From assembly GCA_965230635.1 (NCBI GenBank), contig CBDDLJ010000015.1, positions 15,094 through 79,093 of the forward strand: a stretch of DNA of 64,000 bases, in the 5' to 3' direction. Made by a program: the position numbers. Source of the stretch: Gammaproteobacteria bacterium. Lineage in GTDB: Bacteria > Pseudomonadota > Gammaproteobacteria > UBA1113. This document shows positions 1 to 3,000 of this stretch, piece by piece (position 1 is the first letter of the stretch; each line of letters starts with the position of its first letter).

Positions 1-3000
1 CACTCCTGTCTGAAATTACCCATAAAAAACGTTAAGTTATATCTATTATAGAATACTTGTGACTATTCAGCATAAGAGGAACAGCCAAACGGCACATTCC
101 GAAAAAAATGCCGAATAATCACCAATACTTTTGGAGCAAATAATGCCTGATCTCAGCCATGAAGGGGTACATCGATTTTGGAAAGACTATCAAGATCCGA
201 CCATATATCGGGTTATTGCCTTTATGGAGGCAGTAGAAGAATGGACACAAGATGGCAACCCTGCTTTTGAAGAAGCGATGGAAAAATTAGGTGACAAACT
301 GGATGAGGTTGGCAATTACGAATTAGGTAAAGAAGAAGCATTCATCGACATAGCAGGCCATATTAAATCAGGCCGTTCGTTGCGCCTGTTGCAAGCCATG
401 GATACCGCACACCCAGGCGCTGCATCAAAATTGCTTATTTACTCAGAAGAAAATAGCCAAAGCAGTGAAGACCCATGCGGATTATTTTTACGACGAAATA
501 TTGTTTTTGAACGCTTACGATTATTAAGTCGAGTTTTTGCCCCGGAACGATTTGAACTCATTATTAGAGCATTGGAGAGAGAAGATGCGTAAAAAAACCC
601 TGTTGTTGCCGTTATCACTACTCATCACAATGGCTTTTAGCTTTACACTGTTCGCCAATGCAAAAAGTTTGCAACAAATTCAACAAGAAAATCAAATGGC
701 AGCTACAAACTCAACCAAAAATCAACAGGCATTTCAACAGAGGCTTCAACAATATCAACAAGAATACTTAACATCACAACAAGAAACAAAAATGAATATG
801 AATACAACAACCAGTGGCACTATAACATCATCACCTTCAATAACCCCAAGCCAAACAACCACGCCACAAACAACGTATACCCCTCCGCCGCCGACAGAGT
901 CAACTCCCAGCACAAGTGATTCGTTTACTGGGTTTAGCGATAGTGATAACAACCAACAACAAACAAATGATGATAACGGTTGGCAATATGGTTTTTAATA
1001 GATAGCAATAGGGAGAGTAACGCATGAAAAATTCATTGAGAAAAATATTTACACTAATGAGTATTGGTTTAGCAAGTTTATTTTTTACTAATTGGTTATA
1101 CGCTGATGATGCTTGTTGCAAAACCATCAATAATTCAGTGACAACTTTTGATAAACATAATTCTGATAATTTAAAAAAAATCTCGGATATTTTAAATAAT
1201 TATGTTGTCCATTTGGATGACACAATTACTTCAGCACTTAGCCAGTTTTTCGCGTACAATAATACAACATCGGCCTTTACCGACAATGCAATCATTAACA
1301 ATCAAATCTCGTCACTCACGACAAAATTATTAGAAAAACAAATGACAACCAATCCGAAAGACCAAGCTAAAGTAGTCGGTGAAATGTCTCAATTAATGCC
1401 AGCTGGTAATGGAAATAATGATTTTGATGTTAATAATTACGCAATGAGCACATTGATGAACAACCCTGGCTTAGATGAAAAACAATTAGAAACAGCAAAA
1501 AACTTAATAAAAATTGTCTCTAGTTACGGTAATACAGCAAAAAACATCTCTGGCAAAATCTCTTCTGACAATATGCGAGCAAAAGAGTATCTTGCTAGCC
1601 TAGGAACTTACAATGCCATGCAATCCAATGCAGTTAACCTATTAAACCGTATTTTAGAAGAACGCACGATGAGTGAAGCACTGGGAAAAACTGTTGGAGA
1701 ACGTGCTATCAGCCAAATGCAACTTGATACAAAAACGGTTAATGAAGCCTTAGCTTTTAATACAACGGATAAAGATCCCGGTGCATCCTTACTTGAGATA
1801 GCAAAAGCACAATATTATGTCTCCGCACATAGTCAATATGAACTATTTAAAATCCGACAAGAATTACAACAATTAAATGTGACATTAGTACTCAATTCAA
1901 TACAACAAATGAATAATATAAACCGATTAGCACTTGATGGCGCAAGACAAGTAGCAACATCAGCAACACAGTAATAACTTATTTTAGCAATCAATTAAAC
2001 ATAAAAGACCAGTTGGGTTAGCCCAACTAGTCTTTTGGCAACATTTTATTTGTTCGGCTACTACTAAATTTGATGGCAAATTCTGTCTGCCCAAAATTTA
2101 CAACCTGTTTAAAAAAAACCAAGCATGCAGTTAGCTATTTTTACATCAGATTGAACTATTTCACTGCTTCACCAAGAATAACTGATTAAAAACACTTGAG
2201 TGTAACTAATATTTTAGAAATTTGTTGACATATATTTCTAAAATGTAGAGATTTGTTACTATTTTGCTACGAATTGTCGTTATAGCGTTTCCCTATATTG
2301 TTGACCTATACTAAGACTTCATCTAGCGCCTGCTTGCTTGGTTATTCAAAACCTTATTTACAATAAGTAAACGTCGCTTTTGAAACCGCGCAAGCAAACA
2401 CTATACTCGCTTAGTATAGGCCAACAATATAGGGAAACGCTATAAAATGCGGGAATTTCTAAGATTGAACTTATATTCCGTAGCATTAAGTCCTGCTTTT
2501 TTCTTTAAAATCTGCATGAATGGAGAAAAGATCACAGCACAAATAGCAAATAACTCACATAATTAATCGATAAAATTTGCTAGCCTTGTTGATTTTACCA
2601 GGAGATATGTACTGTGTGATCAGAGGGTTTTGTGATCAACATGGTGCAAATACACATTGGATTATGTGAATAGGACATTATATCTTTTATCTTATTTTTT
2701 TAAAGATAAGCCACTGGATTTATTGTTAGGCGAAGACATTTGCTCTAATGATTTCAACGATGATATGTTGGGTCGTCACCTAGATGCTATTTCTGCCTAT
2801 GGCACGACCAAATTATTTAGTGAAATAACCTATGAAATTGGTATAGAAAACAATTTATTCAATGGATGTTATCATTTAGACAGCACCTCTTTTTCATTGC
2901 ATGGGGCGTATGACAACTGTGAAGGAAGTTTGCCGTTTCCGACATTAGATTACTCAAAAGATCACCGCCCGGATCTAAAGCAAATCACAGTAACGATGAC

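Follow-up and report, generated by a model that had tools for sequence, protein, structure and literature searches.

What are the short palindromic repeats that recur, in places inside genes, along contig CBDDLJ010000015.1 of a Gammaproteobacteria bacterium (lineage UBA1113; GenBank assembly GCA_965230635.1)? The stretch analysed here, referred to below as the window, covers positions 15,094 to 79,093 of the contig, 64,000 nucleotides in all, and its repeats are a family not described before, within a well-known class: transposable elements of the miniature inverted-repeat type (MITEs). Taken together, the evidence set out below makes it very probable that they are non-autonomous MITEs moved in trans by a transposase encoded elsewhere. 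Five copies form the group named MITE-1 and two related elements form a sister subfamily, MITE-2.

The five MITE-1 copies listed by a first-pass annotation of the window are real. A search of both strands with the 35-nt terminal inverted repeat (TIR) TATAGCGTTTCCCTATATTGTTGACCTATACTAAG, allowing up to three mismatches, returned nine matches, against none in 100 dinucleotide-preserving shuffles. These matches pair into elements at 2281-2444, 17627-17790, 44284-44449 and 60697-60860, while the element at 5202-5365 is matched by its left end only, its right end (the tenth MITE-1 end) having escaped the search through a 1-nt insertion. Aligned over their full length, and with the 17627 copy lying in the opposite orientation, the 164-166 bp copies are 90-97.5% identical to one another. 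The TIRs had been described as perfect over about 33 bp; they are indeed long, but measure 35-36 nt and are 94-100% complementary, with perfect complementarity in the 60697 copy. The seven elements range from 153 to 166 bp, occupy seven different contexts within 64 kb and have stop codons in all six frames, which leaves them without coding capacity. Since the copies differ by 2.5-10% and their junctions are distinct and interpretable, an assembly artefact was considered and excluded. In the following list, the strand is the better-folding one of each copy, called strand A.

2281..2444, minus strand: MITE-1, 164 bp (one TA counted per end), intergenic between icmX and an IS1634-like transposase remnant.
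5202..5365, minus strand: MITE-1, 164 bp, right TIR longer by 1 nt and core shorter by 1 nt, inside a B12-binding radical SAM pseudogene.
6612..6764, plus strand: MITE-2, 153 bp, TIR TATAGCAGTTTTCAATATTACTAAGC..., 10 nt of the left arm missing relative to the 36022 copy, splitting an IS4-family transposase gene.
17627..17790, plus strand: MITE-1, 164 bp, 97 nt 3' of the rpoD stop codon and past rpoD's own terminator-like hairpin (17538-17551).
36022..36185, plus strand: MITE-2, 164 bp, left tip mutated (AATTGC for TATAGC), between convergent thioredoxin-like and U-box/ankyrin genes.
44284..44449, minus strand: MITE-1 variant, 166 bp, between recG and an ankyrin-repeat gene.
60697..60860, minus strand: MITE-1, 164 bp, perfect 35-nt TIRs, at codon 56 of an NSS (SNF-family) transporter pseudogene.

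The two MITE-2 elements were recovered from the window by a direct-repeat search and an nhmmer profile, which yielded no additional complete or partial copy beyond the seven. Comparison of the subfamilies reveals an uneven pattern of divergence. Their cores are 78% identical and the two asymmetric sub-terminal arms 100% and 90% identical, whereas the MITE-2 TIRs (TATAGCAGTTTTCAATATTACTAAGCYATTATAA) share only 65-69% of positions with those of MITE-1, the tips reading TATAGCG in MITE-1 and TATAGCA in MITE-2. Twelve predicted base pairs, most of them in the TIR, differ on both sides between the subfamilies with complementarity kept. MITE-1 and MITE-2 go back to a common ancestor, and their left and right TIRs have changed in concert.

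The insertion junctions carry the strongest evidence for transposition. All six copies with intact ends are flanked in the form T/TA...TA/A (slashes mark the element boundaries), and the target is therefore TTAA, of which only the central TA is duplicated. A piggyBac-type duplication of the full 4-bp TTAA was considered and is excluded because the left junction reads TTAT. To rebuild the empty sites at the protein level, each element was removed and a single TA left in place, in the three interrupted genes listed here.

4549..5460, minus strand: what is left of a B12-binding radical SAM pseudogene that the 5202 copy interrupts; upstream (N-terminal) limit approximate.
6214..7501, plus strand: IS4-family transposase gene, split by the 6612 copy of MITE-2.
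60060..61026, minus strand: NSS transporter pseudogene, interrupted by the 60697 copy, with more frameshifts downstream.

Both flanks of the 60697 copy lie in the same frame of the NSS pseudogene, and excision leaving one TA gives the junction residues ...YLVSVL/ILGIPL.... When the N-terminus so rebuilt (...GGGIFVIIYLVSVL/ILGIPLVLAEIMLGR...) is aligned to MhsT (4us3), no gap falls at the junction, and the E-value is 3.8e-32. This confirms the proposed insertion 55 codons into the transporter gene, at codon 56, with the proviso that the gene also carries further frameshifts and the element therefore need not have been the first lesion. In the case of the IS4 transposase, the rebuilt gene is a stop-free open reading frame (ORF) of 378 residues that matches NCBIfam NF033591 in one piece, over positions 1-320 of the profile's 340 and at 242 bits. 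Taken apart, the halves reach 66 and 148 bits, with no coverage of profile positions 92-107. Because the frame is otherwise intact, a fairly recent insertion can be argued here. The rebuilt radical SAM frame is likewise continuous (...FDLLPSPYLEGTI/KAQNFIRWETQRGCLFSCSFC...), and its profile matches cross the junction, extending to 165-398 for KedN5 (198-398 before removal) and to 186-396 for HpnJ (197-396 before). Contrary to what had been supposed, the start codon is not where the 5202 copy sits: it lies inside the gene, near profile position 190, and is upstream of the CxxxCxxC motif by about 15 codons. The fragment matches its profiles only from about position 180-200 onwards, so that some 180-200 N-terminal residues, corresponding to the B12-binding domain, are expected upstream; this 5' part of the gene is decayed and abuts an IS110 remnant. 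With three in-frame reconstructions and the flanking pattern in agreement, both the suggested TA target duplication and the landing of a mobile element inside genes (NSS transporter and radical SAM gene, plus the IS4 transposase in the case of MITE-2) are established. The description of these events as recent fares less evenly: the reconstructions show that transposition took place, but "recent" has a measure only in the 2.5-10% divergence between copies.

The window also identifies the kind of organism involved. It encodes IcmW (PF23130, E = 1.3e-56), eukaryote-like ankyrin, U-box and leucine-rich-repeat (LRR) proteins, a HicAB pair and remnants of several insertion sequence (IS) elements, at a G+C content of about 36%. 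Its RpoD has one identical entry in the protein collection; beyond that, the nearest relatives are only 66-68% identical in RpoD, the few named top matches being metagenome-assembled genomes of Legionellales. The two nearest share synteny with the window between icmW and rpoD, which in one of them extends past gpmI as far as the cytochrome-oxidase assembly genes. Given this gene content, the RpoD matches and the icmW-rpoD synteny, the host is, on genomic grounds, an uncharacterised, pseudogene-rich, Legionellales-like bacterium with a predicted Dot/Icm secretion system.

How would such elements move? A transposase encoded elsewhere in the genome would bind the TIRs of about 35 bp, cut the central TA of a TTAA target with a 2-nt stagger and join the element to it, and gap repair would then duplicate the TA. 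Because TA is what is duplicated, an IS630/Tc1-like DDE enzyme is the leading candidate, the IS630/Tc1-mariner superfamily being the classical TA-duplicating group. Whatever the host experiences is a side effect of insertion, as in the broken NSS transporter, radical SAM and IS4 transposase genes. Transcripts reading through an element would gain a hairpin of about 75 bp, very stable and, if Correia elements are a guide, plausibly a substrate of RNase III; a promoter facing outward may also be supplied, judging by a consensus match only. The repeats, their TIRs, the exact insertion junctions with the TA duplication and the lack of coding capacity are demonstrated, whereas mobilisation in trans, the identity of the transposase and any activity at the RNA or promoter level are inferred.

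Several observations weigh against this explanation. No full-length or autonomous element with these ends was found in the 64-kb window, where elements of up to 2.5 kb with the same tips were sought, and the window ORFs scanned include no IS630-like transposase, only IS4, IS1634 and IS110 types. The two nearest relatives have neither a related element nor a TATAGC-tipped inverted repeat in 34 kb of syntenic DNA. Moreover, the TIRs are the least conserved part between the subfamilies and the unpaired asymmetric arms the most conserved, a pattern that would be unusual were transposase recognition the only constraint. The IS630/Tc1-type partner named by the first-pass annotation accordingly stands only in part: it is compatible with the TA duplication, but neither such a transposase nor a full-length element with the same ends is present in the window, and we give an IS630-type enzyme slightly less than an even chance of being the partner.

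Searches beyond the window returned little. An exact 27-mer of the TIR had no match in 185,579 GTDB representative genomes, and a pattern of the conserved core gave seven single matches there, in unrelated taxa, close to a rough chance expectation of about four; nhmmer matched the seed region only. A 19-mer of the TIR met 10 JGI metagenome contigs and a 21-mer met two in IMG/VR, all 12 sharing nothing more than the 19-21-nt match; the MITE-2 TIR had no match in IMG/VR. Eleven of the 12 contigs represent one unrelated motif located just upstream of a start codon in marine contigs, at least one of them catalogued as viral. The motif, TTTTCCCTATATTGTTGACCTATGGCGAATA, which stands just upstream of the start codon in 10 marine metagenome or viral contigs, matches 21 nt of the MITE-1 TIR exactly, and two remaining contigs share the 19-mer only. 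We treat this match as a coincidence, the rest of the element being missing there. With blastn, plasmids gave no match and phages a single 24-nt chance match, and a six-frame peptide query of the element against 5.8 billion proteins gave none at E <= 10. In the literature we found no description of the element, the only Legionellales MITEs found described being the QMITEs of Coxiella. If the density of seven copies per 64 kb held across a genome of a few Mb, and only then, extrapolation suggests a genome total in the hundreds.

The anatomy of the elements raises the further question of whether they have acquired a function. As had been proposed, the whole element folds into one long hairpin: the two strands of the 60697 copy reach -66.7 and -85.3 kcal/mol, with z-scores of -11.7 and -14.1. 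The strands are not equivalent, however. Strand A folds better than its complement by 11-20 kcal/mol in seven of seven copies, 7-14 kcal/mol of the difference lying in the core, and at each of the six wobble positions that the family has fixed it pairs G.U, never A.C (wobbles found in single copies are nearer balance). In six of the seven copies strand A is also the sense strand of the enclosing or upstream gene, the exception being the 2281 copy. The only sigma-70-like site in the element, TTGAnA-N16-TATACT, lies on the other strand and points outward through the nearer TIR; its -10 box falls within one of the asymmetric arms, and six of seven copies, representing both subfamilies, retain the site despite differences at 5 of the 16 spacer positions. 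One example is given here.

2380..2407, plus strand: sigma-70-like site TTGAAA-N16-TATACT, a consensus match on the non-A strand of the 2281 copy.

In the 44284 copy this box has been lost: a patch of about 13 nt in the left sub-terminal arm is the exact complement of the right arm, which lengthens the inverted repeat to 58 nt. Since the asymmetric arms are common to both subfamilies, the symmetric state of this copy is derived; the simplest explanation would be that, in a DNA hairpin, the opposite arm served as template for a short conversion. Together, the folding asymmetry, the orientation, the promoter-like site, the conservation of the arms and the arm conversion hint that the core is selected, whether as a promoter, as a structured RNA or as both, in signals drawn from two master lineages and seven copies.

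These features could be read more boldly, with the element as a domesticated structured-RNA or regulatory module (a stabiliser of mRNA 3' ends, an RNase III processing site, or a cassette carrying a small RNA or antisense promoter) that is selected by the host and merely delivered by transposition. The strand-A folding advantage, the one-sided G.U wobbles, the sense orientation, the persistence of the promoter-like site and the contrast between arms at 90-100% and TIRs at 65-69% all speak for such a module. Yet the seven copies derive from only two master sequences, which reduces the strand asymmetry to one or two independent observations; for the orientation bias, a one-sided binomial test gives a p of about 0.06; and the promoter-like site matches its consensus at 9-10 of 12 positions, a level that the same scan also reaches in shuffled sequence. 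Three of the seven copies lie inside dead genes, where a benefit is not apparent. Nor does the element match any Rfam family above threshold: in a scan of the window only two tRNAs passed, and the element drew only generic long-hairpin microRNA models below threshold, scoring 43 bits against a threshold of 110 with a plant microRNA hairpin model. We regard domestication as unlikely, and favour mobilisation of a MITE in trans.

The same hairpin bears on a different mode of movement, in which the repeats would be palindromes of the REP/BIME or IS200/IS605 type and a tyrosine (RAYT) or HUH transposase would move them in the form of single-stranded DNA. The strong hairpin, the strand-asymmetric folding and the arm conversion in the 44284 copy are all expected of hairpins formed in vivo, but elements of this type lack long TIRs and target duplication, whereas here there are 35-nt TIRs and a TA duplication at three sites, and no RAYT- or TnpA-like ORF was found among the window ORFs scanned. 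We consider the probability of this reading close to negligible. The REP/BIME elements themselves, described as 20-40 bp palindromes with a GTAG/CGTC head and with neither a long TIR nor target duplication (PMC3733652), were rejected on the same two features.

A third suggestion, made for the intergenic copies, was that they act as terminators. Three copies do lie in the 3' regions of genes (rpoD, recG and icmX), and the hairpin is very stable. For an intrinsic (Rho-independent) terminator, though, the flanks should offer a T-run, and inspection revealed none after the hairpin on either strand; a terminator scan called none at the copies scanned, and both rpoD (17538-17551) and icmX (2003-2036) have terminator-like hairpins of their own between the stop codon and the element. 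The suggestion is not borne out; going by the sequence it is largely refuted, and a terminator role appears very improbable.

The neighbourhood of the elements contains further traces of rearrangement. An island of about 10 kb (1975-11900) separates icmX from rpsU, two genes whose spacing in both of the nearest relatives is only about 0.7-1 kb. Debris of mobile DNA fills it: three of the seven MITE copies, IS1634-like, IS110-like and IS4 remnants, the HicAB pair, the radical SAM pseudogene and an LRR gene. On either side stands a duplicate of the 3' end of icmX (about 1849-1925 and 11889-11965; 95% identity over a 58-nt block), together with similar palindromes at 2003-2036 and 11978-12013. 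Within the island, the 5' end of a 227-residue ORF (10048-10731, no family match) is duplicated at 82-88% identity directly upstream of the IS4 gene. The similarity between 6036-6210 and 10031-10223 belongs to this other gene fragment and stops before the IS4 gene, providing no paralogous empty site. The LRR gene (7599-9023) encodes a 474-residue LRR_6 (RNI-like) protein with tandem 84-bp units, 65-80% identical, in repeats at 7675-8262; it looks like an effector resembling eukaryotic proteins. Elsewhere, a gene at 36309-38219 encodes a 636-residue protein with an N-terminal U-box and ankyrin repeats, and about 240 bp of its 5' coding region (37950-38195) recur just upstream of the gene, at 38304-38543, with 74-83% identity, which suggests a decayed tandem duplication of the U-box segment. 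A TraI_2-type gene for a putative conjugative relaxase/helicase (52750-54108) stands among housekeeping genes and may be the remnant of an integrated conjugative element.

Ordinary for biology at large, the element has its use in the annotation of this genome: it explains several split genes, and its copies are best masked ahead of gene calling. They mark a lineage, host-restricted, pseudogene-rich and Legionellales-like, whose mobile DNA is active now or has been recently. They also provide a clean prokaryotic case in which one genome is enough to prove, through protein-level reconstruction, that TA is duplicated at TTAA, and two subfamilies in which the TIRs co-varied while the core stayed conserved. 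Two leads follow from them, the conserved asymmetric core and a terminal tip held in common with the Correia elements.

Among described elements, the QMITEs of Coxiella burnetii are close in setting, being MITEs from an intracellular bacterium of the same order that is likewise rich in pseudogenes. These QMITEs overlap with ORFs, bear sigma-70-like promoters and yield small RNAs; QMITE1 measures 300-400 bp and has variable direct repeats of 2-4 bp, while QMITE2 has direct repeats of 7-11 bp and a GTAG REP core targeted by IS1111 (PMC5896051). Going by these descriptions, size and direct repeats set them apart from the present family, with its fixed TA duplication at TTAA. The RUP element of Streptococcus pneumoniae is a 107-bp MITE with TA termini that inserts at TA-containing targets, often in IS transposase genes, and for which IS630-Spn1 was proposed as the mobiliser from the similarity of its TIRs to those of the resident IS (PMC2229807). 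Here, similarly, a MITE-2 copy lies within the IS4 transposase gene and MITE-1 adjoins IS1634 and IS110 remnants; on the other hand, RUP is shorter, shows no sequence similarity to the present elements, and no comparable resident IS was found in the window.

The closest analogue is the Correia element of Neisseria (CREE/NEMIS), although the present element is not a Correia element. Both are small, non-coding and AT-rich, with TIRs around a characteristic core; both insert at TA with TA duplication and disrupt coding sequences; and the common long form of Correia, at 153-157 bp (PMC2649163, PMC10969869), compares well with the 153-166 bp observed here. Correia elements carry outward promoters and their TIR hairpin is cleaved by RNase III (PMC10969869), properties that would fit the present elements by anatomy only, and their mobilising transposase is not known either (PMC2649163). 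The differences lie in the sequence, the host and the internal organisation. The Correia TIR begins TATAG[CT]GG (PMC2649163), and in our own alignment similarity ends after the 7-nt tip TATAGCG, the rest of the TIR being at chance level. The full 26-nt Correia repeat, TATAG[CT]GGATTAAC(AAAAA/ATTTAAA)..., is absent from both ends, where only the first 7 nt agree, and the TIR is 35 nt long as opposed to 24-26 nt. None of the 16 matches in the window to the IHF consensus WATCAANNNNTTR falls inside any copy, unlike the Correia form of about 155 bp. The host is a Legionellales-like gammaproteobacterium, and the internal loop is asymmetric and conserved. On the basis of the shared tip (TA/TAGCG), the TA duplication and the size of about 155-165 bp, one could propose that both families are substrates of one transposase lineage, which we think improbable; the tip is a lead to the Correia transposase, but a weak one on present evidence. 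Were the proposal correct, a second, distant host would allow the enzyme to be sought among the transposase families present in both genomes, and these elements would carry with them a functional core made up of the outward promoter and the conserved asymmetric arms.

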